Shown here piece by piece: positions 4,901 through 54,262 of a stretch of DNA of 64,000 bases (the stretch's first letter is position 1; every line of letters starts with the position of its first letter). Position numbers and translations under genes: made by a program. The stretch is from Cyanobacteriota bacterium. GTDB taxonomy: Bacteria > Cyanobacteriota > Cyanobacteriia > PCC-6307 > Cyanobiaceae. The DNA lies in the NCBI GenBank assembly GCA_046052125.1, contig JBJOMY010000001.1:128001-192000 (forward strand), written 5' to 3'. The notes under the pieces were generated by a model that saw only the letters and a program-made list of their open reading frames with translations, was not told the origin of the DNA and searched no databases.

Positions 4901-4906
4901 GTGGCC

Positions 4907-31920: not shown

Positions 31921-32841
31921 TCAGGCGGAAGCCGCCTCCTCCAGGAAGCCTTCAATCCAGCGCTGATGGCGGCTAGTGGTGATCAACCCCGCCAGGGATG
32001 GCACGGCATCGGGCACCTGGAAGGCAGCGCGAAAGCCCTTCGAGAAGGCCTCGAGTTGAACAGGGGGCAGTGCCTTGATCTGCTCCTGTAGCCGGGTGAT
32101 GGCAACGGGCTGGAGAGGAGCATCGGCTATCCCAGAACTGGGATGGTTGGCTCCGTTGGCTACGGGTGCCGGGGTGGTGGCAGCAGCTGCGCTGCTCACC
32201 TGGCGTTGCTGCTTGTCGTAGAGCGCCAGGCCAAAGGGATTCCCGAAGGTCATCAGCGCCCGCTTGGTGGCATCGGTTTCGGCTTCCTTGAGCGCCGATT
32301 CATGGGCAAGGCCGAGATCGGCATCGATGCCATGGCCGGCGCCGGAGCCCTCACGGATCAGGGTGCGATTGCCGGCGGTGATCGTGATGCGCACGCGGGC
32401 GATGTAGGTCACGCCCCAGCCGCTTTTGCGATCACGGCCCGCGCCCTTGGCGCCGATCTGGCGCTCGTGTTCGGCCACGCAGCGGCTGATCAAGGTGGAG
32501 CGTTCCCAGCCGTCAAAACCAAAGATGCGGTTGGCTTCTGCAATCACCTGCCAGCCCTCGAGGTAGCTCACGCGGCTGCGGCCCTGTTCCCGTTGGCGCA
32601 CATTGGCGCGATCGAGGGGAGCAGAAAGAGCTGTGATCTGTCGGGCAGTGAATCCAGCTACGGAGCACAAGGCGCCGTCGTCGTTGGGCGTTGTTTGTGG
32701 AGGCGAAGGTGGAGCAGCGGCCTGCTCCTGGCTCAGGGTTTCCCTGAGCAGCTGAAGCGTGGAAGGTGGCCGATTGGATGCGCTGCGTCGAACCACCGGG
32801 GTGGCGTGATTGGTGGCTGTTGCTGTGGATGTGATGGCCAT
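31921..32841 (-). CDS. Rad52/Rad22-family single-strand annealing protein (Sak-like)
   Basis: SYLEGWQVIAEANRIFGFDGW, REGSGAG, KEAETDATKRALMTFGNPFGLALY. Confidence 0.92.
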   Translation of the reverse strand: MAITSTATATNHATPVVRRSASNRPPSTLQLLRETLSQEQAAAPPSPPQTTPNDDGALCSVAGFTARQITALSAPLDRANVRQREQGRSRVSYLEGWQVIAEANRIFGFDGWERSTLISRCVAEHERQIGAKGAGRDRKSGWGVTYIARVRITITAGNRTLIREGSGAGHGIDADLGLAHESALKEAETDATKRALMTFGNPFGLALYDKQQRQVSSAAAATTPAPVANGANHPSSGIADAPLQPVAITRLQEQIKALPPVQLEAFSKGFRAAFQVPDAVPSLAGLITTSRHQRWIEGFLEEAASA

Positions 32842-32924
32842 GGTGAGGAAAAAGAGTGTGTGTGGAGTGAGAAGGACGTGGGGCCCGCCACTGCAAAACC
32901 CCCTATCGAGGCCCCCTGTGGGGG

Positions 32925-33578
32925 CTAGGTGATTGACCAGTGGCGGCGTTTGATGAGGCGTGCACCGGGGACGGCGGTTGAGGAGAGGGAGAAGGCGAGG
33001 TGAGCGGCTTCTGCTTTGGGGAGGCCTGAGGTGGCGGTAGAGATCAAGGAGCGAATGCGGGCCTTGATGGAGGTTTTGTTGGGCGTGGTGGTCGTTTGGG
33101 TGGTCAGCAGATCTGGGGGGAGAAGATCGGGGTCATCGATCTCGATGGCTTCTGTGCTGCGGGAGGAGAGGTGGTGATCGGTGAGGTGATGGGACGTGGC
33201 GGATGGATCGAGGCGGGAGAGCAGGTGGATGAGGGTGGATTCGAGGGCGTCAGCGCGGTTGTCTTCTCGCTTGGCCAGGGCTGAGAAGCGCTTGGATTGC
33301 GAGGAGTGGTAATTGGCTTCTGCGCGGAGGCGCTCAATTACCCAGCAGGTGGCATCGGCCTTGCGGATGAAGGCCTCACGTTTGTTGTCTTCCAGGGCCA
33401 GAGATTCCTCGAGATCGGCGATGGCGAGGGCACGTTCGTCGTCGTCCTCGGTATCGAGGCGTTCGGAGAGGCAAGCAATCCAATGGGTTTCGGCCTGGAG
33501 ATCAGTGCCGAGCTCCCAGAGAGTGGGCAACTGCGGGGTGGAATCCGGGGCGGTGGTGACAGGAATGGCAACAGACAT
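32925..33578 (-). CDS. Siphovirus Gp157-like protein
   Basis: Coiled coil (KADATCWVIERLRAEA), IEIDDPDLLP, PNKTSIK, VPGARL...WSI. Confidence 0.75.
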   Translation of the reverse strand: MSVAIPVTTAPDSTPQLPTLWELGTDLQAETHWIACLSERLDTEDDDERALAIADLEESLALEDNKREAFIRKADATCWVIERLRAEANYHSSQSKRFSALAKREDNRADALESTLIHLLSRLDPSATSHHLTDHHLSSRSTEAIEIDDPDLLPPDLLTTQTTTTPNKTSIKARIRSLISTATSGLPKAEAAHLAFSLSSTAVPGARLIKRRHWSIT

Positions 33579-33647
33579 GGTTGTGCGGAGGATGAGTGGA
33601 TTGGAAGGTGGGGCCCCGGCGAGCGAGCAGAGCCCCATCGCAAGCGG

Positions 33648-34142
33648 CTACGCCGCTGCCGCTGCCGCGATCTCGATCACTTCGATCGGGATGGCTGAAC
33701 GCCGGCTGAGGCGGCGGGCCTGATCCACCAGGGAGGCGGTGCCGCGAGAACCGGGGAAGGCGACAACGAGCAGGCCAGCGCCCAGGGGGAGAGCAGCGGT
33801 GAGATCGAGGGAGCGCTCGAGCATCTGGCGATTGCGGATTGGGCCTGCGGCGCGGCCGTGCTGCTGCCAGGCCGCGGGGCAGGCGATCTGCGGCCAGCCG
33901 AGCTGATCGGCAGCTGAGGCAATGGCCTGATCAGCCCCGCGGGCGCCGCCATGGAAGAGCGATTGCACCAAGCGGCCATGGGAGGCGCTCAGCAAGTGGG
34001 CGGCGATCAGCTCGGAGGGCCAAGTGAGATCACGGCCACCACCGGCCACGATCACCAGCTGGCCACTGCCAGGGAGAAACAGCGAGCTGAATAAAGAAGC
34101 AGCAGGCGGCGCCAATGCGGCGGCCTGGGTGAGTGAAAGCAT
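33648..34142 (-). CDS. SLOG superfamily protein (DUF2493/YspA-like)
   Basis: VAGGGRD, HGGARGAD, AGPIRNRQML, AFPGSRGT. Confidence 0.88.
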   Translation of the reverse strand: MLSLTQAAALAPPAASLFSSLFLPGSGQLVIVAGGGRDLTWPSELIAAHLLSASHGRLVQSLFHGGARGADQAIASAADQLGWPQIACPAAWQQHGRAAGPIRNRQMLERSLDLTAALPLGAGLLVVAFPGSRGTASLVDQARRLSRRSAIPIEVIEIAAAAAA

Positions 34143-34227
34143 GGAAAGAAAAAAGAGCGCAGAAGGATTTCTTTCAAGGGCTCCGGCAACAGCGGAGGCC
34201 ATCCCTTGATCACCTCTTCATTGTATC

Positions 34228-34242
34228 AGTACGGACGTACTA
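34228..34242. promoter_or_regulatory. Putative LexA box abutting an extended -10 on the minus strand
   Basis: AGTAC-GGAC-GTACTA; minus strand reads TAGTACGTCCGTAC-TGATACAAT. Confidence 0.8.
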
Positions 34243-34460
34243 TGCCCAGGTGAGACGGCGCCATGGGCGCCCTCTTCTTGAATCTTTACGGCGCTAGTTC
34301 TGGGTGCCTGTGGTATCAGCAGTGCGGCAACTCTTCTAAGTGCCGAGCTTTCATTGAGTGCCCGTAACGCAGCTACCACAGCCGCTTCCAGGAGCTTGCG
34401 GCAGGCCCCAAAGCGCTGGGCCACCGCGGCCGCGGGAGGACGCTGTGCGTAACGAACCAA

Positions 34461-34594
34461 CGCCACACTTCCCGGCGGCGGCAAGGACACAAGAGATCAC
34501 GCGAGCGCCAGGGCCGGTGTCCGCGCAGCGGCTACACCGGCTCGCGAAGCCCTGGCGCCGTGTGACATCCTGAATTCCCTGCCGCCGGGTGGCG
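34461..34594. other. Long nested inverted repeat (rod-like hairpin)
   Basis: CGCCAC/GTGGCG, CCCGGCGGC/GCCGCCGGG, GCGCCAGGGC/GCCCTGGCGC, CGGTGT/ACACCG, CCGC-GCA-GCGG. Confidence 0.85.
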
Positions 34595-34699
34595 ACTTAA
34601 CCACAACGCATCGCCCGATCAACTCAGTCAGCAATCACCGACAGTGATCAGAACAAGACGGTCTGTGTGAGAAGGTCGCACTAACGGTGCTCTCCTGAC

Positions 34700-34903
34700 T
34701 TGCCTGCCCTTGTTGCTTCCGCCGCGTGGCCATTGCAGTTCTTTGCACTGTTTATCGTGCTCACGATCTATGGCGCCATGTGGAAAGGCGCTCAAGACCA
34801 AGGGCAACGCGGTTGGGTGGTTGCTCTGATCTGGGCCGTTGCTTTCCAGCTCGGGCTACAAGCCCTGAAAGAACTCAATCTCCTGCTCTATCACAGCCAC
34901 TAA
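34700..34903 (+). CDS. Small two-TM membrane protein
   Basis: Two hydrophobic segments. Confidence 0.5.
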   Translation: MPALVASAAWPLQFFALFIVLTIYGAMWKGAQDQGQRGWVVALIWAVAFQLGLQALKELNLLLYHSH

Positions 34904-35176
34904 GAGCAGAACGATTTGATTCCGGCAAAGATCATGAAGAAGCCTGTAGCCAGGCTGCTGCACTCCGCTGCAGATCAGCCACGGCGGTAAGGGCTTGATT
35001 GATACCACTCGCGACGAAGCACCGAGCTCAACTAGCAACGGGGCAATGAGTCTTGCCAAGACAGCCCTAAGACAGCGAGGCATGAGTGGTCGGTGAACCT
35101 CAAAAGAGTGATCAAGGAGGACTAGCGCACCCCCCCCCGGCGACTTAATAATTTCTTCTCCTTTTGCGAGTGTCCC

Positions 35177-35371
35177 TTGAACAGCACTCCCTCGTTCCCT
35201 GCAGACCGGCAGAGCGCAACGCCAAGGCCATGCACACGGCGCCCGCAACGCATCACGATCACTGTCCCCTGGCAGCTGTACCAACGCCTTGTGGAGATCA
35301 GTGATCAGCAGGGCCGCTCCCTCTCGAATCTCGCCTGCTACTGGCTGGAGCGGCAGTCAGGGAATAGCTGA
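35177..35371 (+). CDS. Small ribbon-helix-helix-like DNA-binding protein
   Basis: QRITITVP...SDQQGRSLSNLACYWLE. Confidence 0.7.
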   Translation: MNSTPSFPADRQSATPRPCTRRPQRITITVPWQLYQRLVEISDQQGRSLSNLACYWLERQSGNS

Positions 35372-35742
35372 TTCGACAGAAGCAGCCAGAAGCGAAGCGT
35401 TGAGCAAGGCCGATTTCTTTGCTCAACGCTCGCTTACTGGAGGCAACGCAGATCGTTCAGAAGTGTCCGCATGAGCGCCTATGGCTGCCTGGCCCCACTC
35501 CAACAACTGCCATGCAATCACTGAACATGAAAAAGCAGGGCTGCCGGCCCTGCCTGATCTCCCATGGAGCCATGACCCTCGATCACAGGCTATCGAGATC
35601 TTGTGCATCGAACATCCAGACGAACATGTCCTGTAAGAATCTTCAGGCCAGGTGTCGGATGATGACGCAAAACTGAAGAAACGTCCCGCATCCAAAAGCA
35701 ATCTAGATTCCGCATCAGACTGAAGCCAGAGAGGAGCATCCA

Positions 35743-36255
35743 ATGCTTCACTTGGCTCATCACCTCCATCCACTCGAGACCTTCGACGAACATCGGATTG
35801 TTCTCAGTGTCATCCATTACTTCTCTGAACACTTCTCCGCACCAATCACGATCCCTTCCCTGAGCGGGCAGTTGGGGATTTCGTTACTGCATATCGAGAC
35901 CGCCTTTGATCTCTACAAAGGCACGACCGCCAACGAAGCTCTTCTGGAATACCGCCTCAATCGCTTATGTGATGTGATGTCTAGGGATCCATCACGGGAG
36001 ATCGGCAAGCAGATCAACGAGTGTGGCCTGGCATTTGGCTCCGCTCCCGCCCGGATAGCGTTTTGCCGTACCAACCAGCAATTCATTGATCACTTTGGGA
36101 TCGACCTTGTCGAGTATCACCAGCAATGCTTCCTGGCAGAAGCTGCTCGCTTGAGCAGGCAGTCAGTGCCAGGGGATGAGGCACTGAACTCAGAAGTCTT
36201 TGGAGACGATCCCCGCAGGAATGTGCATCCCACTCGATTTCACAGGCAACACTGA
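35743..36255 (+). CDS. AraC-type HTH protein
   Basis: YFSEHFSAPITIPSLSGQLGIS...EYRLNR; paralog of 51031-51480. Confidence 0.65.
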   Translation: MLHLAHHLHPLETFDEHRIVLSVIHYFSEHFSAPITIPSLSGQLGISLLHIETAFDLYKGTTANEALLEYRLNRLCDVMSRDPSREIGKQINECGLAFGSAPARIAFCRTNQQFIDHFGIDLVEYHQQCFLAEAARLSRQSVPGDEALNSEVFGDDPRRNVHPTRFHRQH

Positions 36256-36592
36256 ACGGCGTACAGCCCCAAGACAACCTCCAGCAGTTCATCGGGCACT
36301 ACCGCCACGCGCTGCAACTCAGGCACTCAGCTGCGCCCCTCCGCGATGGCGTGCTCAGGGTCCATCGCCCGCACGGGCTGAATTCTGCAGCGCTCCTGAT
36401 CGCAGAAGAACATGGAAAACGCTGCCATGCCTGGGCTCTAGAGGAGAAATGGGGTGGGCTGCGGTGTGAGGAGTGCAGCCCAGTGCATCGCTGTGATGAC
36501 GGCCAGGGGGTGATGACCTCTCCTGACGCGTGAAGCGAGCACCGCTCGGTCATGGCCCAGGTGGCGGGTCAAGCGCAAGAGCGATCAGAGCA

Positions 36593-38263
36593 TCAGTGCT
36601 GCTCAATCGGGCTGATCGGCTCGAGCACCTCCAACAGCGCCTGCAATTCCGCCTGAGGATCACGCTGCAAAAGCGCGACCACATCCGGTCCGGGCTCTAC
36701 GGCTTGTGCGATGGCCCCGCCCACAGGTCCCGGTAGTTCCCCCACCAGCTGCAACGCCATCGAGGCAATGGAGCCATCCACGGCCATCAGCGCCAGGCTG
36801 CTCAGCCACTCCAACGCCAAACGGCACGCGGGATCCTGCAGGGCGAGGCAGCCGAGCAGGTCACGGCACTCGGGTGCATGAATGAACAACCGCAGGGCAC
36901 GGCGCTCGGCCCGTTGCTGAGCGCTCGCATCACTCGGCACAAACACATCTGCGGCCGTGATGCATTGACGCTCAGCTGGTGTTCCGGGCTTGCCCTGCAA
37001 GGCCTGCTCCAGCCGTTGTTCTGCTGAGCGCCGCAACACGCCTTCAGGCAGCTGCTCGAGCAAGGCATAACCCTCGAGCTCCACCGCTTGCAAGGTCTCG
37101 AGCGCGGGCGAACCGGCAGTGATCAGGAGCGGAGCTACTAGACGCTCCAACCGCCATTCCAGCCAATGCCGAGCTGAGGTGATCAAACCCTCCACAGCCG
37201 TTGGCCCCTGAGCCCGGAGCAAGCCGTCGGCGTCCTGGCCCTCTGGCAACTGCACCACCGAGGCACTCAACCCACCGGCCACCAGCTGTGGCTGCAACTG
37301 TTCAAGCAGCTTCTCCGTAGCGGCCTGCCCCGCGCCATCGCCGTCGAGGGCAATCAACAGGTGCTTCATCCCATGGCGCCTGAGGAGCTGGAGCTGCAGT
37401 TCCGACACGCTCGTGCCCAGGCAGGCCACCGCATGGGTGAAACCAGCCTGGTGAAGCTGGATCACATCCAGCGGGCCTTCCACCAGCAACGCTGTGCCTT
37501 GCTTGCGGATCGCCTCTGCGGCTTGATCCAGGCCAAACACCAACCCATTGCGTTGGAACAGCAGGTCTCCTGAGCTGTTGCGGTATTTGGGTACCTGGTT
37601 GCCCATAGCCCGGCCGCAAAAGCCCACGGTCTGGCCGGATGGATCGTTCAGTGGGATCGTCAGCCGGCCGCCGGCAAATCCCAGTTGCCACGTGCGCGCC
37701 GTCTCTGGGCTGATGCCACGGGTCTGGAGGTAATCCGCTCCCTCGCCGCCTTGCTCCAGTTCCTGCATCAGAGCCTGATGAAACTGCTGACGCTGCTCCG
37801 TGCGCTGCGCCATCAACTGGCGTCGTTCGCGCCACTCCTGCTCAAAGCGCGCCTGCGCCTCGGGATCACCCTCCGCCACGCTCACGCCGGTGCGGCGCGC
37901 CAGCTCGAGCACCGCTTCTTGAAAGCTCAGGCCCTGCCGGTCCTGCAGCCAGCCGATGGCGTCGGTGCCCTTTCCGCACACAAAGCAATGCACGCGGTTA
38001 CGCATTGGGCTGACGGATAGCGACGGATGGCGATCGTCATGCCAGGGGCAACGGGCCACAAACTCCCGCCCCGCCTTTTTGAGCTCCGAGGGCCCAAAGA
38101 GATCCGTGATCTGGGCCCGCTCGCGCACGCTCTCGAGCACCGCCGGCGTGAGCAGCCCAGCCGGGCGCCCCGAAGGGTGCCCACTGGGTGTGCGGTGGGT
38201 CGCGCCAGCAAACACCCGATGAAAAGCGGCCGTGCCGCTGGCTTTGCCGTTGCTCATAGGCAC
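36593..38263 (-). CDS. DnaG-like primase
   Basis: CHC2 zinc finger CPWH...HCFVC, KYRNS, Toprim VEGPLD and DGDGAG. Confidence 0.93.
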   Translation of the reverse strand: MPMSNGKASGTAAFHRVFAGATHRTPSGHPSGRPAGLLTPAVLESVRERAQITDLFGPSELKKAGREFVARCPWHDDRHPSLSVSPMRNRVHCFVCGKGTDAIGWLQDRQGLSFQEAVLELARRTGVSVAEGDPEAQARFEQEWRERRQLMAQRTEQRQQFHQALMQELEQGGEGADYLQTRGISPETARTWQLGFAGGRLTIPLNDPSGQTVGFCGRAMGNQVPKYRNSSGDLLFQRNGLVFGLDQAAEAIRKQGTALLVEGPLDVIQLHQAGFTHAVACLGTSVSELQLQLLRRHGMKHLLIALDGDGAGQAATEKLLEQLQPQLVAGGLSASVVQLPEGQDADGLLRAQGPTAVEGLITSARHWLEWRLERLVAPLLITAGSPALETLQAVELEGYALLEQLPEGVLRRSAEQRLEQALQGKPGTPAERQCITAADVFVPSDASAQQRAERRALRLFIHAPECRDLLGCLALQDPACRLALEWLSSLALMAVDGSIASMALQLVGELPGPVGGAIAQAVEPGPDVVALLQRDPQAELQALLEVLEPISPIEQH

Positions 38264-39954
38264 TCCACCCCCGGATAGAGATCGCTGCCGATGAACAACT
38301 TGCGGGCGTTATCGGCCTCCAAGTAGCAGTGGCCGCGGTCCATGCGGATCATGGTCTTGCTGAAGTCGTTCTCGCCGGTGGTCTGGCCGTGACGACATTT
38401 GCCGTGGTGCACCTCCAACACGCCGGGTTGGGGTTGGCTGAATTCATCCACCTTGGGCCTATCGATCAGCCACACCGCTGAGGCATAACGCTCGAGCTCA
38501 GAGGTCCCCGCCAGGTGGGAGACATCCGGGCCGGTGGGATTGCCGTAGGCACCGCGGTTGAGCTGCGCGATGACGAACACGTCGAGTTCACAGCAGCCGG
38601 CGATGGCTTTGATGGCTGTGGCCCGGGCGGCCAGCTCTGCGGTGGTGTTACTCCCGAAACCCGCGGTGGGCCCCATGGCGTGGAAGTGATCCAGAAACAC
38701 CGCCGAGAGGTTGGGGTTGGCGCTCTTGCAGTCCTCCACCATCGCCGCCAGCTCTTCCACCGTGGCGGCGAATTGGCTCTCGTAGAGCACCTTGCCCATG
38801 CGCTCGCCATTGGGGGCAATGCCGGCGGAGAACTGCGCCTCAAGCTGCTGGAGACGCTCCAGATCACGGCCCTCGATCACCTCACCACGGCCCTCCAGTT
38901 CGTTAGCGGAGTAACGGGATGAGAACACCCCACTGGCCTTGCGGCAGTAATTAGCGAGCAGCCGTGCACCGATCGCTCGGCGGCTCAATTCGCACGACAG
39001 CACAAGCACCGAGGCGCCGTTAAAGGCCAGGCCCATCGCCGCTGCAATGCCCACGGTGGTTTTGCCCACACCCGATCGAGCGGCCAACACCCAGGTGCTG
39101 TCGCCAGTCCCAGGGATCACGCCACCGCGCATGTCGATATCCAGCGAGGGAATCCCCGTTGAGATCGGCTTGGGGCGTTGGTCGGCGGGCAGAGAAGCCA
39201 GCGCGAGGCATTCGCGGCCGGCATCGCTCGCCGTGCACACCTGGAAGCTCCGGCGGTGTCGGCCGGCCGTGATCGCCGTGGCCTCGTTCAACAGTTGGCG
39301 GCAGCTCTCGAGTTCGCCATCGATGCCGCAGTCGATCTGCTCGCGCGCCAGGAGCTTGCGCAGCCCTGGATAGAACAGCGCCCTGGCCTTGGCGCTCTGA
39401 AAAAGACGGCAGGCGATTTTGAAGTCCAGCTCCGGGTGGATCAGCCCGTCATCTCCCCAGGCGATCACCTCAGACAGCGCCTCCTCCATCTGGAGAAGTG
39501 AGCCGCGGAAGCGTCCCTCAAAGGCACGCTGGCGCAGATCCTCACGGATGGCGTTGGCGTTGAGCACATCAATGTCACGCCGGCCGCGGAACAACTCATC
39601 GATTTCCAACGCGAGAGCGCGCAGGCCCGGCTGGGTCCAGATCGAGCCCGGCACCACCTCGTCGAAGCGCAGGCCGATGGCGCGGCGGAATGTTCCCCAG
39701 CGTTCGCGTTGATCGTCGGTGCCCACCAGGACGGCAGCCAGGAGGTTCTTCTCGTGCTCGGCGAGTGAGTGATCAGCAGGCACCGTTGGCACCTCAGCCG
39801 CCATCAGTCCTGCTGCGGTCTCGATGAACAGCCCCTGATCGATCATCCGCTGGATCAGCGCCGGGTCAAACGCGCCGGGGATGGTGGTCTTGAGCTCCTC
39901 GTTGCCGGGGTCGTTGTTGCCGGCACCGGTATTGGCGTTGGGGTTGGTGGTCAT
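38254..39954 (-). CDS. DnaB-like replicative helicase
   Basis: AARSGVGKT Walker A, VFLDH Walker B, AQLNR, KCRHG. Confidence 0.9.
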   Translation of the reverse strand: MTTNPNANTGAGNNDPGNEELKTTIPGAFDPALIQRMIDQGLFIETAAGLMAAEVPTVPADHSLAEHEKNLLAAVLVGTDDQRERWGTFRRAIGLRFDEVVPGSIWTQPGLRALALEIDELFRGRRDIDVLNANAIREDLRQRAFEGRFRGSLLQMEEALSEVIAWGDDGLIHPELDFKIACRLFQSAKARALFYPGLRKLLAREQIDCGIDGELESCRQLLNEATAITAGRHRRSFQVCTASDAGRECLALASLPADQRPKPISTGIPSLDIDMRGGVIPGTGDSTWVLAARSGVGKTTVGIAAAMGLAFNGASVLVLSCELSRRAIGARLLANYCRKASGVFSSRYSANELEGRGEVIEGRDLERLQQLEAQFSAGIAPNGERMGKVLYESQFAATVEELAAMVEDCKSANPNLSAVFLDHFHAMGPTAGFGSNTTAELAARATAIKAIAGCCELDVFVIAQLNRGAYGNPTGPDVSHLAGTSELERYASAVWLIDRPKVDEFSQPQPGVLEVHHGKCRHGQTTGENDFSKTMIRMDRGHCYLEADNARKLFIGSDLYPGVECL

Positions 39955-46915: not shown

Positions 46916-47077
46916 ATGGGCCTGCTCTACGAACTGATCGTCGACACCGAGGCCGGTACCACCACCGTTCAACTCGAAGCCAACAGCAAGCAAGAAGCTC
47001 TCGAGAGTGCTCAGGAGCTTTATCCCGGTTGCCGATTGGCGCTGGTGAGCCCGGAGCCGGGAGAGCAGAAGGGCTGA
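46916..47077 (+). CDS. Small hypothetical protein (53 aa)
   Basis: MGLLYELIVDTEAG...AQELYPG; below the ORF-track cutoff. Confidence 0.5.
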   Translation: MGLLYELIVDTEAGTTTVQLEANSKQEALESAQELYPGCRLALVSPEPGEQKG

Positions 47078-47197
47078 GCAATCACCGCCCAACCAAAACC
47101 CCCCGAGCAGAGCCCGAGGGTGATGGATCAATCACGCTGCAAGTCCATGGACTGAAGCGGCTGGCGTTGGCGCCTGGGGTCACGTCACCTCAGCGAG

Positions 47198-48289
47198 CTA
47201 AGGCCCATCCCTGGTGAAACAACGACTCACAAAGGGGGATGTCATGGCTCGCAACAGGGCGCTGTAGCTGAGCTGGTAGCGCTGTTCATCACCTACCTGT
47301 GGCTTCACGCCCAGGCATCCCACGACCAGATGATCACTGGAGGCGCCGCGGATAACGACACCATTTGGTGGGCTTAACCCTTGTGGATCAACATCTTGTT
47401 CACCCAGCGCTAGCAGCACTCGATATTCAGAACCTGGCGCGGTTGAGGTTGGCTGTGGCTCTGGCTTTGGGATTGCTGAGGCAAAGCTTGTGCGTTGGCG
47501 CTCTCCCCAGGGTTGGCTTGGTTTCAACTTGGCCTCGATCACTTCAGCCACCAACGTGATGGCATTGGTGAATAGGCCAGGGATAGCTGTGCGCCTCAGG
47601 GGCTCTCGGCCGAGCAGTAGGGCCTCCCCCAAGCGCAAGTGATTGAGGCGCCCGGGCTCTCCTCCGGCGGCCAACCAGGGCAAATTTGCAGAATTCCCGC
47701 CAGAGCACCAAGGCAAACGCACACCAAAGCGACGCTCCAAGGCGTTCGTAAGCCGTGAGAGCTCAGCCATGTTCAGCGCATCGGGGACAACCCCGTGCTG
47801 ACAGCCCAGATTGGCGCCGATTCCCATCAAGCGCAGATTGGGGAGGGCCAGGGTTTGTTGCGCCAGCGCCTCGAGATCCATTGCCAGGATTCCTTCACGC
47901 AAGTCGCCCAGCTCCACCATCAACAACACCCCATGGCAAATTCCTTGCCGCTGGGCCGCTGCAGACAATGCCCGCAACACACTCAGTTCGCTGTTGCAGC
48001 TGATGGCTGCGTGGGTAACCACGCGTTCAACCTGAGTGAGCATTGGGGAGCGAATCAAGAGCATGGGTACGCCAACCCCAGCCGCTGCAAGGGCTTCGAT
48101 GCTCTCGATTCGGGATTCACCGATCGAGGCCACCCCGGCATCCACCCAGGTGTGCACGATTTCGGGAAGGCCCAGCGTCGCCTTGCTCACACCCGTCACG
48201 GCAATCCCCTGCAGGGCCAGACGTCCCACAAGGGTTTTGGCGTTGTGGTGCAGTCGCCCGAGGTGGATCTCGAGCCGCGGTGCACTCAC
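47198..48289 (-). CDS. PLP-dependent alanine/ornithine racemase family protein
   Basis: VTGVSKA (PLP Lys), ELGDLREG, SGGNS, HLRLGE, GASSDH. Confidence 0.88.
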   Translation of the reverse strand: MSAPRLEIHLGRLHHNAKTLVGRLALQGIAVTGVSKATLGLPEIVHTWVDAGVASIGESRIESIEALAAAGVGVPMLLIRSPMLTQVERVVTHAAISCNSELSVLRALSAAAQRQGICHGVLLMVELGDLREGILAMDLEALAQQTLALPNLRLMGIGANLGCQHGVVPDALNMAELSRLTNALERRFGVRLPWCSGGNSANLPWLAAGGEPGRLNHLRLGEALLLGREPLRRTAIPGLFTNAITLVAEVIEAKLKPSQPWGERQRTSFASAIPKPEPQPTSTAPGSEYRVLLALGEQDVDPQGLSPPNGVVIRGASSDHLVVGCLGVKPQVGDEQRYQLSYSALLRAMTSPFVSRCFTRDGP

Positions 48290-49431
48290 GTGCTCAGGAG
48301 TCGTTCAACGCTGAGTTCCGGGAAGGCACGCACCACCATCGCCACCAGGCTTGATCCGGGGCGGCTGACTGCATCGGTGACCGGAATGTCGAGCTCGGCC
48401 TCGTAGAGGGCGATGGCAGCCGTGAGCTCAGCATCATTCATCCCTTCATGGTTGATGGTCAGACCGATCACACGGGTGGGCGCAAAGGCCTCAATGAGCC
48501 GAATTTCACTGGCTGGCGAGGGCATCGGCAGAAAGGGAAAATCACTGAGACAGCGTCGAGCCGGCGCATGCTGCAGGATCACGGCCTGCGGCTGGCAGCC
48601 GCGCAGGATGAAACTTGAGGAGAGATAGGCGGGGTGGCTGAGGGCACCCTGGCCTTCGATCACGATCACGTCGGGCTGCTCACTCTCGTAGGCCTCCACA
48701 ACCGCCGCCTCAACTTCGCCAGAGCAAAACTGCGATGGGATGGCATCCAGGGGAACGCCAAAGCGCCCACCCTGGATCAGCCCTGTCTGGCCTGTGTTCA
48801 CAAGCACCGCCTTGATGCCGTGGGCCTGAAGCGCCTGCACCAGCAGGGTTGCAGTGGTTCGTTTCCCGATCGCTCCATCAGTACCCAGCACAGCGATGCG
48901 CAGGCAGCGCGCCCGGCTGATTGATCCATCGAACAGCTTCAGATCCTTGAGGGGGGCCGGTCGTCGCACATCGCGGATCGTGACCTGATGGCGGGCAGCC
49001 ACTGCCAAGAATTCCGGATCGTCAGTCAGAAATTCGCGCATGCCACTCACGAGATTGAGGCCTGCGGCCATCGCATGTCGCAACACCTGCCGGTCCTCCA
49101 CACGGAAGAGACCATCGGCAGGGGCCATCCCGTAAATGAAGGTGTCTGGAACGGCGCCGGGCAGATCTTTGCCTTCTTCCAGGCTACAGACAATTGGAAT
49201 GCCCCTGAATACGCCATCAAGCACCATGCCGGCATCCATACCGGCGCACTCACTGTCAATCACAGCGCTGATTGTGTAGGCCTCACAGTGACGAACCAAC
49301 CCGTGAGCTGTTTTACCGTCGGGACCAGCGAAATGACCTTCGCAGTAAACAATGGCCGTTGATCGCACGGTTGGAATCAACCGGTGCATGGCGGCGGAAT
49401 TCAGATCAATGATCTGAGTTGGAAATGACAA
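48286..49431 (-). CDS. DUF1611 family P-loop protein
   Basis: GKTAHGL, GTDGAIGKRTT, TGQTG, IEGQGALSHP; start uncertain. Confidence 0.9.
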   Translation of the reverse strand: MSFPTQIIDLNSAAMHRLIPTVRSTAIVYCEGHFAGPDGKTAHGLVRHCEAYTISAVIDSECAGMDAGMVLDGVFRGIPIVCSLEEGKDLPGAVPDTFIYGMAPADGLFRVEDRQVLRHAMAAGLNLVSGMREFLTDDPEFLAVAARHQVTIRDVRRPAPLKDLKLFDGSISRARCLRIAVLGTDGAIGKRTTATLLVQALQAHGIKAVLVNTGQTGLIQGGRFGVPLDAIPSQFCSGEVEAAVVEAYESEQPDVIVIEGQGALSHPAYLSSSFILRGCQPQAVILQHAPARRCLSDFPFLPMPSPASEIRLIEAFAPTRVIGLTINHEGMNDAELTAAIALYEAELDIPVTDAVSRPGSSLVAMVVRAFPELSVERLLST

Positions 49432-49797
49432 AAAAGCCAGGCCAATCCCGCAGCACAGTTGTGGCGGCTGGGTGACATGGGTGCCTTCACTCTAGGCAGG
49501 GTTGGCCACAGAAGGGGGTGTCGATCAGTCAGGCGCACGAGGTGAGAACAAGCTGAAGGGCTGATCTCTTGCCCCGCTGAACGACCCCGCCCACGGTTGA
49601 GTGAAGACTGTTGGAGCAGGGGCCTGCAGTCAGCGGTGCTTCTAGATCTGCTGCTGGGGTGGGGTATCTGCCATGGGTGGCGCCTCCCTGGGTTGGTGAT
49701 CACAGATTCGCTCCGGCCAGTGCGCTGAGCAATCCGTTTTTTCACGCATTGCCTTGCCCGCAGAACAGGAGCAGCGTGGTTGGTTTGGCCTTGTTGT

Positions 49798-50106
49798 TCA
49801 GCGCCAAAGCACCATCCGCGGGGGCTGGGGTGGATGCCATTGCGGGGCGCAGGGTGCCCAGCCGTCAGCCCTGCGTTGACGCCACAACTCAATGGCCTTC
49901 TCACGGCTGAGTCGTTGGCGCCGCTTGAGCAACGGCGCGGTTTGGTCGCTCAGCCACTCACCACTGGTGACCTCGAGCTCCTGCTGCGAACGTCTCCAGA
50001 TCACCGGCTTGAAATGGAGCACCTGGCGGCCGTCACTCAACCAGGCCTCAGCCGGGTTGGAAGGGATTCGCTGCCCTTGATCTTGTTGGGCATTGGGCAC
50101 CCACAC
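49798..50106 (-). CDS. DUF1651-like protein, copy B
   Basis: AWLSDGRQVLHFKP, PLLKRRQRLSREKAIELW. Confidence 0.78.
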   Translation of the reverse strand: MWVPNAQQDQGQRIPSNPAEAWLSDGRQVLHFKPVIWRRSQQELEVTSGEWLSDQTAPLLKRRQRLSREKAIELWRQRRADGWAPCAPQWHPPQPPRMVLWR

Positions 50107-50109
50107 GCG

Positions 50110-50403
50110 TCAGCCCACCTCCGGCGCCCAACCCCGCTGGCGGGTCATGTCGTCGGTCCAGCCCTGGCAGCGGCTCAGGAGGTGATCACCATGAGCAATC
50201 AGGCCCTGATGCAGCTGGCAAGTGAGCAGCGGAATGCACTGCGCTCCGGCGTGGTGCCTGAACCAATGGCAGGTCATGCAGACCTTGCGACTACGACTGG
50301 CTACCAGCACGTCGCCATCGAGGTAAGGCCAGCCCTCGCAGTCGGCTGCGGCCTCAACCGCAGCCGTCACTGAGCGGACTGACCTTGGACGGGAGAGCGC
50401 CAT
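50110..50403 (-). CDS. Small Cys/His-rich putative metal-binding protein, copy B
   Basis: CMTCHWF...CQLH...WAPE; same length as copy A. Confidence 0.8.
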   Translation of the reverse strand: MALSRPRSVRSVTAAVEAAADCEGWPYLDGDVLVASRSRKVCMTCHWFRHHAGAQCIPLLTCQLHQGLIAHGDHLLSRCQGWTDDMTRQRGWAPEVG

Positions 50404-50420
50404 CACCAAACTCCTGCAGT

Positions 50421-50435
50421 CGTACACCTGTACTA
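50421..50435. promoter_or_regulatory. Putative LexA (SOS) box
   Basis: cGTAC-ACCT-GTACTA (minus strand TAGTACAGGTGTACG). Confidence 0.75.
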
Positions 50436-50619
50436 GCAGGGATTGGGTGAGTTGGCTCGGTCGCTGAGCAGCGCCTTTCACAAAAGAACCCCGGGCCATG
50501 GGCGCCCGGGGCCTTTGAGCCAGCGGGTCCTTGGCTGCCCGCTTCTCCACGGTCATGGCTTAGGCGAATGCTCCATGGCAAGGGGTGTCGGAACCCTTTG
50601 AGGCCTCACGCCAACTCCT

Positions 50620-50946
50620 TTGCTCGCCTTCTTTCAACGCATCACTTCCTTCATCCGTTCGCTGGTCCAGCGGGAGGCCAATTGCTCCTCAGATCTCCGC
50701 GGCCTGCCCTACCAACAGGACCATGCCCTGGCTGCCTTTGAGCAGGGTGACTGGCTCGCTGAACTGGAGCTTCTCCAGCTCGCCAACGCCCTGCAGCGCA
50801 GCGCGATCAGCCGTGGCGGCTATGACGGCCGCGCGTTTGATCTGATGGTCGCCATCGCCGATGCTCTCGAGGCTGATCACGGCTGGAGTTTTGAGCAAGC
50901 CGATGGCTGGCTCGAGCGAATGGGGCTCTGGGACGAGGAGTTCTGA
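50620..50946 (+). CDS. Hypothetical protein
   Basis: 108-aa acidic ORF with host-like codons. Confidence 0.6.
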   Translation: MLAFFQRITSFIRSLVQREANCSSDLRGLPYQQDHALAAFEQGDWLAELELLQLANALQRSAISRGGYDGRAFDLMVAIADALEADHGWSFEQADGWLERMGLWDEEF

Positions 50947-51030
50947 GCGCACCGGATGCCAAATGGAGCGACCATTTCGTCCGGTTTGATCCGCACCCTG
51001 CTCTACGCGCCCCTGGCGCGTTTCACCAGG

Positions 51031-51480
51031 TCATGCTGAGAGCACTAATGCTTCAGCAGTGGGATGATCTTTGCGAAACAAGCGATCATCGGCTGCGCGT
51101 CGGCAGGTCCGCATGAACAGTGGCATCTCAATGCCAAACGCCTGCTCAAAAAGAGCTACAACGCCTGCGGTCTGGCTCAGGCCACAGGCCGCAATGGCAT
51201 GCCCGAGCCCCTGCCGGGGCTGATCGGTGAGTGCGGCAAACAGCTTGTTGAGGCGGTGCTCCTGCAGGGCTTGCGTCAGGCTGATGCCACGCACTTGCTC
51301 AAAACTGAGATCAAGGCATTGTTTGCTGATGCCTAACAGAGCGGGCAGTTGACCGAGATCGATCGACTCTTGAAAGTGGAGCGCAAAGTACTGACGCACT
51401 GCTGCAATAATCTGCATTGGGCTCTCGCAAGCCAGGGGAACTACAGATGCACCTTGGCCTAAAGATCGCTCAATGATCAT
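51031..51480 (-). CDS. AraC-type HTH protein
   Basis: YFALHFQESIDLGQLPALLGIS...EHRLNK. Confidence 0.65.
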   Translation of the reverse strand: MIIERSLGQGASVVPLACESPMQIIAAVRQYFALHFQESIDLGQLPALLGISKQCLDLSFEQVRGISLTQALQEHRLNKLFAALTDQPRQGLGHAIAACGLSQTAGVVALFEQAFGIEMPLFMRTCRRAADDRLFRKDHPTAEALVLSA

Positions 51481-51980
51481 TCACGTCTCCTGCACCGCAG
51501 GGAGCGATGCGACCGAAGCCCATGCTGATGAGCTGGATATCAAGACGCTAAGCCATTGTTGAAATCGCCGCATTCCTCATCACAAGTTCATCTAGCGACA
51601 TCTTGCGACACATACCAACCCAAACACGGTAAATCTGTGGTGATTCAGTGCGTTACTGGCTGCAGATCCCTACACCACCATGATGGCCTTGGTCGCCTGC
51701 GGCTTCTGTTGGGCGTACCGAGGGGCATGAGGCGTCGCCAAAGCGACGCTTTTTTCGTGACCGGTTTCCAACCCAACGAGTGGCCTCCGCTCAGGCCGGT
51801 GGACGATCCAGTAGGCGTCCACCCGCTGGTGTAGAGTGAATTCGATTCAACGACCTCTCTCAGGCGGGTTTCTCTTTCAAGCGGCGAGTCTCTCGAGCTT
51901 CTGGCTTCGGTATTTCTCCACTCGACCAGTCACTTTCTTCAGGGCTATCAGCGAATCGGCTACATAATTCTGCTTATTGA

Positions 51981-52253
51981 ATGACAATTTACGTTGGCAA
52001 CCTCTCCTTCGATGCCGAAGTGGAGGACCTTCAACACCTCTTTGCTGAGTACGGCTCCGTCAGCAAGTGCAGTCTGCCGCTCGATCGCGAAACAGGTCGC
52101 AAGCGTGGCTTCGCCTTTGTCGACATGGCCGACGCCAACGCGGAAAGCAAAGCCATTGCTGACCTTCAGGACGTGGAGTGGATGGGCCGCTCGATCCGGG
52201 TCAATAAGGCCGAGCCTCGCCCCGCACCTGCATTCGCCAACAGCCGCTGGTGA
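51981..52253 (+). CDS. rbp: RRM RNA-binding protein (cyanobacterial Rbp)
   Basis: RNP2 IYVGNL, RNP1 RGFAFV. Confidence 0.95.
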   Translation: MTIYVGNLSFDAEVEDLQHLFAEYGSVSKCSLPLDRETGRKRGFAFVDMADANAESKAIADLQDVEWMGRSIRVNKAEPRPAPAFANSRW

Positions 52254-52442
52254 ACTCGTTCCCAACAGCTGCAGCGCTGTTGCGCTCCAATGGCCGGCCC
52301 TGCGGGTTCGCTGTGTGGAGCTCAGCCAGGGATGTCAGCGGTGGCAATGCCCAGCCTGAGGACAACACAACACCGATGGGCGAACCGTCACCGGCGCCCT
52401 CAGGACATGACCCTCAATGGATTCCAACACTCTGAACAACAC

Positions 52443-52586
52443 ATGACTCAATCTTCCGGACGCTTTGGTTTTGTTGAATTCGCAGAAACCTGGAATGGCC
52501 GCCTCGCCATGCTCGGTTTCGTGATCGGCCTCGGCACTGAGCTGCTCACTGGCCAGGGAATCCTGTCCCAGATCGGCCTCGGCTGA
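52443..52586 (+). CDS. hli: High-light-inducible protein
   Basis: AETWNGRLAMLGF chlorophyll-binding motif, 47 aa. Confidence 0.95.
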   Translation: MTQSSGRFGFVEFAETWNGRLAMLGFVIGLGTELLTGQGILSQIGLG

Positions 52587-52685
52587 AGCGGCGAGCAACT
52601 CTCCCCCCGAAGAGGTGTTCAAGAGCGTTGAGCTCTTGAACGCGTGCGTTTGCGACCGGACGATCTCCGGGATTTGAATCTTCAG

Positions 52686-52716
52686 ACCCCTGGGCATTGC
52701 TCAGGGGTTTTGTTTT
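52686..52716 (+). terminator. Intrinsic terminator between convergent hli and integrase
   Basis: ACCCCTGGG/CTCAGGGGT stem plus T-rich tail. Confidence 0.7.
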
Positions 52717-52741
52717 GGTTGTTTTGGTGGCATGGCTTGCT

Positions 52742-54082
52742 TCAACCAAGGCCTGCTGCCTTGAGCTTCATCGCCATCTCCAGCAGTTCCGGTGTGATGC
52801 CTTCCGGTAGCGCAGGAGGTGTCGAGAACACAGACGGAGCCTGCTCAAAGGGCTGTATCCGGTTCGCAGCAACGCCACCACCGCTCCGACGCCGCTGCAG
52901 CGACTCCTTCCGGCGGCTTGAGCTCAGCCAGCGCAGGTAAATCCGGCGGTGCACATCGAGCCCATGGCCCATCCAACAGGCCATGTCGTCGTCGAAGGCA
53001 TCAGCGGTTTCAGATGAGGTGGCGCAGCGAATCGCATAGGCGTGCCTGAGGTCATAAGGACGCACCCAGTCCATGCCGTCACCGTCCGCCACTGGGGCCC
53101 AAAGCTTCTGCAGGCCCTTCCGCTGAAACTCCTTGTAGAGGGAGTTGGAGACAGCCACGTTGTTCACGGCGATCTTCACGCCGGACACTTCCGCAAAGCG
53201 CACCTTCCAGCGGGCATTGAGCTGACCGTGGAACTGCTCCCAGTTCGCCCGCAGGCCATAGCGCTCCACCCAGTCGTCCGGAACGGCCGGTGCGAAGTGC
53301 TCGCCGGTCTTGGTCTTCATGTCACCGGGGATGCTGATCCAGCCCTGGCTGTCGATCCCCTCGGCATGCCACAGCTCATGAGGCCTGAGGCCATAGGTGG
53401 CGATGCAGCCAAACACCCACTGGTGAAACGGCTCTAGGCGGTCGAGCCAGTGCTGGAGATCCTCGTCGGATGGAATGACGCGTACCCGCATCGAGGAGGC
53501 CTTGCGGATCTTCTCGGCCGCCCCTTTCGGGCGCATGTCGCGCAAGCGTTGCAGTACAGCGGTGAGATCCATCAGGCCGCTGCGATGGATCTGGGAAAGG
53601 GTCTCGATCCGCCGGTTGAAGCTCTTGAGCTGAAGGCGTGGATCGTGCTCCAGGACCCATGCCTGCAGCTTCTTCGGATCCACAGGCCCTCGGAACCGGG
53701 CGATCCGTTTGTTCAGGTCGTTAATCACGTGGGCACGACTGCCCTCCTTGCAGATCCTGAGCTTGATGTCGCCGATACAGGCTTCGGCAAGGGCAGACCA
53801 GTCGCTGCCTGGAAGAGCCGGTTGCTCTGATGGCGCAGCAGGCCAGCGTCCCTGGCGGTGGCCGTGGATGCATAGGTCCCGCGCCTCCTCGATGTCATCC
53901 CGATTGCACCAACGCATCGGTTTGAGCGAAAACTCACCGAGCTTTCTGCCTTCCTCCATCTCGCGCACGTAGATGAACGGGCTACCTGGATGGCGCCTGA
54001 TCCGAAATCGGGAGTGCCGGACTTTGAGCTCATGCACACACTGGTCCCAGAACGGCAGGCTTGGAGGACGGCTCTCAGGCAT
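52742..54082 (-). CDS. Tyrosine recombinase (integrase)
   Basis: YGLRPHE (R), KTKTG (K), YDLRH, MGH, HRRIY (Y); next to the tRNA 3' end. Confidence 0.92.
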   Translation of the reverse strand: MPESRPPSLPFWDQCVHELKVRHSRFRIRRHPGSPFIYVREMEEGRKLGEFSLKPMRWCNRDDIEEARDLCIHGHRQGRWPAAPSEQPALPGSDWSALAEACIGDIKLRICKEGSRAHVINDLNKRIARFRGPVDPKKLQAWVLEHDPRLQLKSFNRRIETLSQIHRSGLMDLTAVLQRLRDMRPKGAAEKIRKASSMRVRVIPSDEDLQHWLDRLEPFHQWVFGCIATYGLRPHELWHAEGIDSQGWISIPGDMKTKTGEHFAPAVPDDWVERYGLRANWEQFHGQLNARWKVRFAEVSGVKIAVNNVAVSNSLYKEFQRKGLQKLWAPVADGDGMDWVRPYDLRHAYAIRCATSSETADAFDDDMACWMGHGLDVHRRIYLRWLSSSRRKESLQRRRSGGGVAANRIQPFEQAPSVFSTPPALPEGITPELLEMAMKLKAAGLG

Positions 54083-54120
54083 GGGATCCGTGCGACGCAG
54101 GACCCAGTGAGTGTTCCCCA

Positions 54121-54148
54121 AAAACGTGCAAAGTGCTTTGCACGTTTT
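54121..54148. promoter_or_regulatory. Perfect 13-bp inverted repeat upstream of the integrase
   Basis: AAAACGTGCAAAG-tg-CTTTGCACGTTTT. Confidence 0.75.
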
Positions 54149-54262
54149 GGCTACAAGCAGCCTCAAGTCGTCACAAGTGGCTCACACTGGTCCCGGCTTT
54201 GGAATCCCTGAAAACCCAGGCCCAGACAGCAAAAAGCCCCGCCGAAGCAGGGCACAGAGCAA

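Follow-up and report, generated by a model that had tools for sequence, protein, structure and literature searches.

The question raised by the locus described here is whether a tRNA-adjacent stretch of picocyanobacterial DNA that encodes replication proteins, two sigma factors and a recombination operon, and in which no virion gene is recognised, represents a mobile element in its own right or the residue of a prophage. The locus lies in a window of 64,000 nucleotides (positions 128,001 to 192,000 of contig JBJOMY010000001.1, assembly GCA_046052125.1, a member of the Cyanobiaceae), in which the element extends from about 29.8 kb to 54.3 kb, up to a tRNA-Met gene. An earlier reading of the sequence alone, hereafter the original prediction, had described a self-replicating, capsid-less integrated element of a distinct class, starting at position 31921. 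According to the present analysis, the region is probably a member of a multi-copy family of phage-derived integrative elements of Vulcanococcus/Cyanobium-type picocyanobacteria, which would carry the lysogeny and early half of a temperate cyanosiphovirus without its particle half.

The window has a G+C content of approximately 0.6-0.65, and open reading frames (ORFs) were selected on the basis of third-position G+C. Between 31.6 and 57.8 kb, 41 ORFs were compared with Pfam, 37 of these also with PHROGs, and NCBIfam was used in addition. The element of the window is referred to as copy A, and its sister copies elsewhere in the same genome (2.64 Mb) as copies B and C. The comparison covered a genus sample of 36 other genomes, nine further regions from seven genomes, and 17 loci from a scan of the genome_contigs collection with one genome per species, four of which probably repeat loci already counted. 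Selection was estimated as the pairwise ratio of nonsynonymous to synonymous substitution rates (dN/dS, Nei-Gojobori) over 5-10 loci per gene.

Gene content and conservation of the element family

All the gene classes listed in the original prediction are present in copy A (Table 1), as identified by Pfam, PHROGs and NCBIfam, by fold for the integrase, and by ARAGORN and Rfam for the tRNA-Met. Indeed, the region encodes (i) an initiator-like protein, a DnaB-like helicase and a DnaG primase in an operon beside iterons, (ii) two sigma factors, a protein with a LuxR-type helix-turn-helix (HTH) and a phosphoesterase, (iii) an SLOG-Gp157-Rad52 operon behind a LexA-type box and (iv) cargo genes, namely an RNA-binding protein (rbp, with an RNA recognition motif, RRM), hli and a racemase.

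Three full paralogous elements are encoded in the genome, along with partial copies. The DnaB-like helicase is present three times, the two paralogues being 90% and 87% identical to the window copy, and close helicase relatives were found in 10 of the 36 other genomes of the genus. Copy B (C1:691773-738247, 46.5 kb; core at C1:~707-738 kb) lies beside a tRNA-Lys gene and has its integrase at the end nearest the tRNA; a stretch of 44-45 nt from the 3' end of this tRNA is repeated at C1:619348-619391 and 691728-691772. Copy C (C3:14592-47918, 33.3 kb; core at C3:~25-47 kb) has an integrase of a different, phrog_1-type family at its distal end, and the 3' 42-43 nt of a tRNA-Pro are repeated at C3:14549-14591 and 47919-47960. 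One core is thus combined with three different integrase and attachment (att) modules; the integrases of copies A and B share 30% identity, and that of copy C is related to a different integrase.

The recurrence of this gene order in related genomes, which the original prediction had left as a check, was observed. The conserved order is Rad52-Gp157-SLOG, a variable slot, DnaG-DnaB-initiator, the putative origin, the sigma factor, the LuxR-HTH protein, the short sigma factor, the phosphoesterase, the 144-aa and 168-aa ORFs, a cargo slot, a right-end module and the integrase, with a conserved core of about 15 kb within elements of 25-46 kb. In the nine further regions, the replication and sigma/phosphoesterase core is present in eight, the exception being a truncated copy (genome G007) at the same tRNA-Met site as copy A, and the Rad52 module is present in seven. 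Adjacency of the initiator and DnaB genes was found in 16 of the 17 genome_contigs loci, and a divergent sigma gene in all nine of these loci that exceed 13 kb. According to the source records, the loci are labelled Vulcanococcus, Synechococcus sp., Cyanobium and Prochlorococcaceae metagenome-assembled genomes.

Three contigs bearing the element (L051, L064 and L066) are labelled Asaia bogorensis or Chitinophaga pinensis, and these labels look wrong. In L064 (10001-17311), a distantly related integrase (30% identity) and a tRNA-Lys directly follow DnaG, with no Rad52 module between them; because of this arrangement, the integrase/att module can lie on either flank of the core.

The core genes are under purifying selection, with median dN/dS values of 0.13-0.34. 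In detail, medians are 0.18-0.19 over eight loci for SLOG, Gp157 and Rad52, 0.18-0.19 for DnaG, 0.14 for DnaB, 0.34 for the putative initiator, 0.13 for the short sigma factor (Sig146) and for the 168-aa ORF, 0.21-0.23 for the phosphoesterase (Exo), the full-length sigma factor (Sig324) and the 108-aa ORF, and 0.25 for the 148-aa ORF. Values for the 144-aa ORF (0.40) and the LuxR-HTH protein (0.51) are higher.

No virion, relaxase or type IV secretion system (T4SS) match was obtained among the 41 ORFs of the window. The particle genes were also sought with queries from head-gene elements of the same genome (terL, portal, scaffold, major capsid) and from cyanophage S-CRES2 (terS, terL, portal, capsid, major tail, tape measure): homologues of terL, terS, portal, scaffold, major capsid, major tail and tape-measure genes were found in none of the 17 loci and in none of ten regions of 40 kb, a search that divergent tail genes could evade. 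Likewise, neither the 140 ORFs scanned in variable and flanking regions of six loci nor the 27 ORFs scanned in and around copies B and C have a structural, relaxase, coupling-protein or T4SS match in Pfam, and PHROGs gave no head, tail or packaging protein in the left parts of B and C. The terminase, portal, major capsid, tail and tape-measure set of a complete siphovirus prophage is therefore missing, as are the relaxase, coupling protein and T4SS of integrative conjugative or mobilisable elements. Among the findings that the original prediction had named as speaking against it were cores lying mostly inside full prophages or conjugative elements and relaxed selection on core genes; neither was observed.

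PHROG head and packaging matches are confined to two other elements of the genome, P1 (C1:619392-691727; loci L015 and L044-L047) and P2 (C3:47961-113227; loci L014, L048-L050 and L016), of 65-72 kb each. They are bounded by the tRNA-Lys and tRNA-Pro 3'-half repeats and are arranged in tandem with copies B and C at the same att sites. Each encodes an integrase, a helicase, a large primase, terL, a sigma factor, a portal, a scaffold and a major capsid protein, and carries a second, divergent Rad52-Gp157-SLOG module as well as large defence-like genes; no tape-measure or major tail gene was recognised in either. An endolysin is encoded inside P2, and the endolysin near P1 belongs to copy B. No P1/P2-like element was found in the window, nor at a distance of up to 20 kb from the core in the six further genomes examined. 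P1 and P2 may be helpers, capsid-forming satellites or tail-less prophage remains.

Integration site, putative origin and regulatory signals

The ORF beside tRNA-Met has no match in Pfam, PHROGs or NCBIfam, and none in the Protein Data Bank (PDB) by single sequence or profile. Its AlphaFold model (predicted local distance difference test, pLDDT, 83.7) retrieved Tn1549 Int, XerA, lambda Int and Cre in a fold search, an alignment of 21 homologues includes R261, K286, R374, H375, H406 and Y410 among its invariant residues, and the protein shares 34.6% identity over 454 aa with the integrase gp101 of cyanophage P-SS2. Taken together, the predicted fold, these residues and this homology identify it as a tyrosine integrase. 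Its start probably lies at 54082, given that its homologues measure 436-446 aa. Structure prediction, which the original prediction had recommended for all hypothetical proteins, was run for two of them; it was informative for the integrase and gave a poor model for the putative initiator.

Positions 54196-54303 (108 nt, comprising the element-side arm and the tRNA 3' half) align with the int-attP region of P-SS2 (local alignment score 74), for which a 53-bp attachment site at a tRNA-Met locus was published (PMC2784084). The integrase gene starts beside the tRNA and reads into the element, and replication genes and cargo follow, as in the inward-facing arrangement of tycheposons; an integrase with a tRNA-derived att site is also a feature of siphovirus prophages. 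By homology with P-SS2, the integrase would recombine an attP containing the tRNA 3' half with the chromosomal tRNA, which would leave its gene beside a rebuilt tRNA-Met.

At the opposite end of copy A, exact k-mer, fuzzy, Smith-Waterman and blastn-short searches of the window, of 18 kb upstream and of the whole genome returned chance-level matches to tRNA-Met only. The best attL candidate (29716-29729) was rejected, its 13/14 match being at chance level, and so was a 15-nt inverted match between 54227-54241 and 46833-46847, which looks like a terminator stem. The full and partial tRNA flanks of tycheposons are thus seen in copies B (tRNA-Lys) and C (tRNA-Pro) and not in copy A.

Next to the helicase gene, the putative initiator (Rep355) has no match in Pfam, PHROGs or NCBIfam and no tblastn match in phage records. 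Its N-terminus matches P-SS2 gp107 weakly, over 69 residues (E 5e-5), its low-confidence model (pLDDT 54.8) has a winged-helix-like N-terminal domain, and its nearest ESM Atlas clusters are viral HTH_36 proteins, a language-model result that serves as a lead only. These observations and the position of the gene point weakly to a replication initiator. Between the initiator and sigma genes, an AT-rich box TTGTTTTTGG...TCTCTAAGAC...TTAGAGATATA is present in nine of nine loci, and 23-24-bp iterons were detected beside it by Tandem Repeats Finder (TRF) in six of nine. The iteron sequence tracks the initiator variant: one sequence accompanies the window-type initiator (89% identity in G007), a second accompanies a group of initiators with 52-55% identity, and a third occurs in genome G030. 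From this anatomy and from the co-variation of iteron and initiator, Rep355 could bind the 23-bp iterons beside the AT-rich box and load the DnaB of the element, after which DnaG would prime synthesis and a host polymerase would elongate.

Three loci, namely copy B (G000B 29826-29885, i.e. C1:729826-729885), G027 (25032-25089, i.e. C1:2257032-2257089) and G017 (24560-24620, i.e. C24:239560-239620), have another tandem repeat of 23 bp upstream of the genes for the 151-aa ORF and the short sigma factor, with ~2.7 copies of the consensus CCACAGGTGTGGCATCAACAGCG or of a variant. This repeat may be an operator. None was found by TRF in the window copy.

In the transcription module, the two sigma genes, the LuxR and the phosphoesterase operon of the original prediction were recovered, the LuxR-type HTH match being weak. 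A sigma region 4 hidden in the first 115 residues of the phosphoesterase ORF (Exo473) was considered and rejected, with no Pfam match at E ≤ 1. The two sigma factors and the LuxR-HTH protein could steer the host RNA polymerase to promoters of the element and possibly of a helper phage.

Upstream of the recombination operon lies a palindromic LexA-type box, and a -10-like hexamer (TACAAT, minus strand) lies between it and the SLOG start codon. The box is present upstream of SLOG in all ten loci with the SLOG module and in none of the six loci without it. Genome-wide (2.64 Mb), the strict motif AGTACN4GTACT has four occurrences, of which three are at the equivalent spot in copies A, B and C. The motif is a candidate LexA site because it resembles motifs of the host, CGTACGCCTGTACT upstream of recA and a looser version upstream of lexA, and also the LexA boxes of cyanobacteria. 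Given the motif and its strict conservation, DNA damage could free the box from LexA and so switch on SLOG-Gp157-Rad52. The box lies inside a doubtful 90-aa ORF; on account of this and of a dN/dS of 0.74, the ORF is probably promoter or leader DNA and not a gene.

Relationship to cyanophages and known mobile elements

The closest relatives of DnaB and DnaG are those of P-SS2 (34-38% identity, with 34-36% to gp108 and gp109, respectively), followed by those of S-CBS2 and S-CRES1-3 (26-34%). The phosphoesterase shares 47-50% identity with its S-CBS2/S-CRES counterpart, and Sig146 shares 34% with S-CRES2 gp23; in total, five proteins of the element match S-CRES2. Gene arrangement is shared as well. 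P-SS2, with the order int, RecT, gp107, dnaB, primase, sigma, ssb, has a homologous integrase, an attP arm with the tRNA-Met 3' half, and gp107-dnaB-primase followed by sigma, as in the element. In S-CBS2 and S-CRES phages, the phosphoesterase adjoins a sigma factor of the SigF-like type. The annotation of S-CRES2 places a helicase and a replication protein on one strand, facing Rad52, a sigma factor and ssb on the other, which is the divergent layout of the element; terS, terL, another sigma factor, a primase and the phosphoesterase are annotated further along the genome. Among the viral loci listed, the order is terS-terL-sigma-primase-phosphoesterase, and a large-terminase homologue is found no more than 10 kb from the phosphoesterase in 30 of the 80 viral loci kept. 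In contrast to these phages, the element lacks terminase, portal, capsid, tail and tape-measure genes and bears host-type cargo, and identities are just 26-50%; the Rad52 proteins of the element and of S-CRES2 have no similarity detectable by BLAST.

The original prediction knew of no phage-inducible chromosomal island or tycheposon with the combination of a separate DnaB and DnaG, two sigma factors and Rad52. Known systems do have this combination, since S-CRES2 is annotated with all of them and with the phosphoesterase. Its claim of a distinct class stands in part: the elements form a discrete, conserved, capsid-less family with its own replication genes. Because of the match to the S-CRES2 gene set and to the P-SS2 gene order, the element is nevertheless a phage-derived variant of the tycheposon/satellite kind and not clearly a separate class.

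With cyanosiphovirus homologues for all recognisable core genes, copy A could instead be a decayed S-CBS2/P-SS2-like temperate siphovirus prophage whose structural genes were deleted and which has no life of its own. Several observations point this way or weigh against a maintained element. No partial tRNA-Met copy exists anywhere in the genome, and, since no attL is recognisable, copy A may have lost the ability to excise and be stranded, its core being nonetheless intact. Copies at the same tRNA-Met site elsewhere are partly deleted or truncated (e.g. G007, G008, G036), and decay of these elements does happen. Copies B and C each encode an endolysin, a prophage-like trait and the sole particle- or lysis-related PHROG match inside them. 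The initiator assignment combines gene position with a weak partial match, a low-confidence model and a language-model lead, and Sig146, in which Pfam recognises sigma region 2 only, might not work as a sigma factor. Lastly, a collection of viral contigs contained no relative of Rep355 or DnaB, by a search method whose null result is no proof of absence from virions, and the phosphoesterase relatives in it are at most 53% identical, so that neither virus fractions nor predicted proviruses gave any sign of the element in the sequences searched.

The report closest to the present one concerns a marine Synechococcus-type island. Islands at tRNA-Met and tRNA-Ser in Synechococcus RS9917 were described with RAD52-family proteins, a sigma factor, a P-SS2-like integrase and insertion sequence elements, and, as a terminase, a structural gene and a lysozyme were also reported, they were read as relic prophages (Sullivan et al. 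2009, PMC2784084). As far as that description goes, these islands share with the element the tRNA-Met site, the RAD52-family protein, the sigma factor and the integrase type, whereas the present family lacks head genes and is conserved as a unit. Decay is also hard to reconcile with the same virion-less set and order in three paralogues with three integrase/att modules and in relatives, with the intact att repeats that still flank two copies, of 33 and 46 kb, and with purifying selection on the core; independent decay would not delete exactly the same half every time, and the low identity to known phages indicates an old split. Gene content, conservation and selection thus support the view that the element is not a randomly decayed prophage, and decay as the full explanation appears quite unlikely.

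A large cargo-carrying tycheposon, with nothing new in kind, is a second reading. In outline, the element fits the definition of these mobile elements as given by Hackl et al.: in both, integration is next to a tRNA, the tyrosine recombinase faces inwards and escapes Pfam, a DnaB-type helicase is among the replication genes, niche cargo is carried, tandem arrays occur within islands flanked by tRNAs, and there is a link with DNA damage. The preprint groups tycheposon recombinases with a core-gene recombinase (10.1101/2020.12.28.424599); the profile built from the integrase has a weak match to an ORF of ~390 aa in 149 of the 151 family genomes, which would fit this grouping. Tycheposon hallmark genes also respond to mitomycin C (10.1101/2020.12.28.424599), in agreement with the LexA-type box. 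By description, however, the tycheposon replication module is 'optional, small' (10.1101/2020.12.28.424599) and the DNA moved amounts to 2-10 kb (PMC8995045), whereas the element has a much larger core, separate initiator, DnaB and DnaG genes with an iteron origin, two sigma factors, the Rad52/Gp157/SLOG operon and the phosphoesterase. Sigma factors and Rad52 have no occurrence in the main text of the preprint, one sister copy has an integrase of another type, and the hosts are high-GC freshwater and estuarine picocyanobacteria and not Prochlorococcus, as far as the described tycheposons can be compared. An ordinary tycheposon therefore seems rather unlikely. No description of this core was found in literature on S-CRES1/S-CBS2, picocyanobacterial islands and satellites, Vulcanococcus prophages and the part of the tycheposon work that was covered.

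If the preferred reading of a maintained phage-derived element is correct, the lack of packaging and particle genes means that it would have to spread by a foreign route, and probably in the capsid of another phage; a helper phage, the capsid-encoding elements in tandem with the sister copies, vesicles or vertical descent could each account for its distribution. Excision, replication and transfer are all proposed here from gene content. Phage-inducible chromosomal islands (PICIs) and P4-like satellites, roughly 10-15 kb in size, have an integrase at one end and their own initiator with an iteron origin, lack particle genes and need a helper capsid. The element resembles them in its end integrase, in the anatomy of its putative initiator beside iterons, in the lack of particle genes and in the presumed need for a helper capsid. 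It differs in its size of 25-46 kb and in its control motif, a LexA-type box in place of a helper-sensing repressor; no fused primase-helicase and no terS, capsid-size or packaging-redirection gene was recognised in it, no S-CRES2 terS homologue occurs in the 17 loci or the ten regions, and no helper phage is known for it. A stronger claim would be that of a new satellite class with its own initiator, helicase, primase and sigma factors, which would excise and replicate upon the SOS response, seize transcription and be packaged by S-CBS2/P-SS2-like siphoviruses or by P1/P2. This claim is possible and, on balance, doubtful. If true, it would reveal a layered system of helper, capsid former and replicator in picocyanobacteria, a group in which the search for inducible prophages has been long and intact ones are described as hard to find (PMC2784084, PMC6157547).

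A further alternative is that the region is a defence or regulatory island resident in the genome, in which the sigma factors, Gp157 and the nuclease would act against infecting phages and the replication genes would only amplify it upon infection. Gp157 has been discussed in relation to phage resistance (PMC6157547). In NCBIfam, the best match of Sig324, far under the model cut-off, is to MzaA, a sigma factor that belongs to the anti-phage system MZA; toxin-antitoxin pairs (DUF433/DUF5615, PIN, BrnT) are in or beside several copies, and copy B encodes large helicase- and methylase-like PHROG proteins resembling defence genes. On the other hand, no defence system was called in the core by searches that covered Pfam, PHROGs and NCBIfam and not the PADLOC library, and the nearest relatives of the core genes are phage replication and early genes and not defence genes. 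As an explanation of the whole locus a defence island is very improbable; such activity is compatible with a phage-derived element, as satellites commonly interfere with phages.

As a maintained phage-derived family, these elements would mean that the early half of temperate cyanosiphoviruses persists as a conserved, multi-copy cargo element in freshwater and estuarine relatives, and gene gain by the tRNA-flanked islands of picocyanobacteria is only partly explained by tycheposons. If excision and replication after DNA damage were true, the family would offer a tractable system in which to study how islands form and how satellites relate to helpers in cyanobacteria; its att sites are clear and its putative origin is readily testable.

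Cargo slots, flanking island and further observations

Table 1. Features of copy A and its borders (window positions)
Feature	Position	Strand	Match or remark
Left shared segments	29817-29950, 30901-30981, 30991-31307		blastn 87-92% vs sister copies
138-aa ORF, left shared part	31130-31546	+
DUF433 gene	31636-31917	-	Pfam
Rad52-family annealing protein	31921-32841	-	Pfam E 8e-40
Gp157	32925-33638	-	Pfam E 9e-14; Gam-like PHROG match
SLOG/YAcAr protein	33648-34202	-	Pfam E 3e-9
Variable slot between recombination and replication operons	34218-36553		Different cargo in other copies
Doubtful 90-aa ORF	34218-34490		Contains LexA-type box
LexA-type box AGTACGGACGTACT	34228-34241	palindromic	~25 nt upstream of SLOG start codon
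Ribbon-helix-helix gene	35177-35371	+	Pfam
AraC-like HTH gene	35743-36255	+	Pfam
Conserved 84-aa ORF	36299-36553	-
DnaG primase	36593-38263	-	Pfam/PHROGs
DnaB-like helicase	38254-39954	-	Pfam/PHROGs
Putative initiator (Rep355), 355 aa	39990-41057	-	No family match
Putative origin	41200-41410		Between initiator and sigma genes
AT-rich 40-mer	41207-41246		27.5% G+C
Five 23-bp direct repeats (iterons)	41253-41364
One inverted iteron copy	~41388-41406
Full-length sigma factor Sig324	41477-42451	+	Pfam/PHROGs/NCBIfam
280-aa protein	42512-43354	+	Weak LuxR-type HTH
151-aa ORF	43767-44222	+
Sig146, short SigF-like sigma factor, 146 aa	44192-44632	+
Calcineurin-type phosphoesterase (Exo, Exo473)	44485-45906 (ORF)	+	Phage homology from ~44692, near residue 70
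Conserved 144-aa ORF	45834-46268	+
Conserved 168-aa ORF	46282-46788	+
Cargo pair and small ORF	46907-49431	-
Small ORF	46907-47131	-
Alanine-racemase-like gene	47198-48289	-	Pfam
DUF1611 gene	48286-49431	-	Pfam
Conserved right-end module	49401-50946		167-aa ORF, DUF1651, 148-aa and 108-aa ORFs
DUF1651 gene	49798-50106	-
148-aa ORF	50110-50556	-
108-aa ORF	50620-50946	+
Cargo block beside integrase	51031-52700
AraC-like HTH gene	51031-51480	-	Pfam
92-aa ORF	within 51031-52700
RRM RNA-binding protein	51981-52253	+	Pfam
hli	~52446-52586	+
Tyrosine integrase, P-SS2 type	52742-54166 (ORF, 474 aa)	-	Likely start 54082, 446 aa
attR region (element-side arm and tRNA-Met)	54196-54336	-
tRNA-Met	54263-54336	-	ARAGORN, Rfam

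Cargo occupies at least three slots, which vary between copies. The pair of racemase-like and DUF1611 genes is missing from copies B and C, and a homologous pair (73-90% identity, tblastx segments) is carried at the tRNA-Met site of G008. In copy B, G017 and G012, most of the right-end module sits before the integrase; in most other loci, parts of it trail the core. In G007, the cargo block beside the integrase is at the opposite end of the element and in reversed orientation; a single inversion was considered for this difference, and no simple rearrangement fits. The variable and flanking parts of other loci (140 ORFs from six loci, Pfam) include transporters, metal-homeostasis genes, response regulators, toxin-antitoxin pairs and insertion sequences. 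Across the copies examined, cargo comprises metal and ion transporters, the racemase/DUF1611 genes, hli, the RNA-binding protein and toxin-antitoxin pairs, with large defence-like genes in copy B, which makes these elements plausible carriers of niche genes.

Of 24 sequencing runs, four (X1, X3, X6 and X11) were mapped over window 35000-54900. Three metagenomes, from freshwater, an estuary and groundwater, have a summed contig depth over the core bins (36.3-46.9 and 49.6-50.9 kb) that exceeds that over the cargo bins (47.0-49.6 and 50.9-51.6 kb) several-fold, and contigs end at module borders. All 24 runs consist of assembled contigs, data that are blind to excision, circles and copy number.

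On the left, homology of copy A to copies B and C starts at 29817, upstream of the start proposed in the original prediction. This position is taken as the minimum left edge, and the element begins there or further left. Chromosomal synteny with relatives stops near C1:126.4 kb, so that the whole of window 1-54262 is a flexible island. Within it, the remnant of the right end of a second element was found at 22275-25900. Its pieces are a copy of the ribbon-helix-helix gene (22275-22368, 86% identical) and, with 89-92% identity, a 167-aa ORF/DUF1651 stretch (23589-24131) and the 148-aa ORF (25449-25899); the part that duplicates the right-end module spans 23436-25900. This remnant would fit tandem accretion at tRNA-Met.

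Furthermore, a 145-aa ORF without a family match (window 18551-18988, minus strand) is multi-copy in the genome. Matches to it with 77-94% amino acid identity are found at C1:355.3k, C1:640.6k, C1:694.9k, C3:19.0k and C3:211.9k, and the match at C3:231.2k is weaker (54%). This ORF adjoins the endolysin in copies B and C. Positions 5000-7000 have a G+C content of 0.42-0.44 compared with ~0.62 around them, with no ORF past the filter at 4843-6892, and may be a recent foreign insertion. Two neighbouring genes for sulfate/solute-binding proteins (9405-11673), with 67% DNA identity, represent a tandem duplication within the island.

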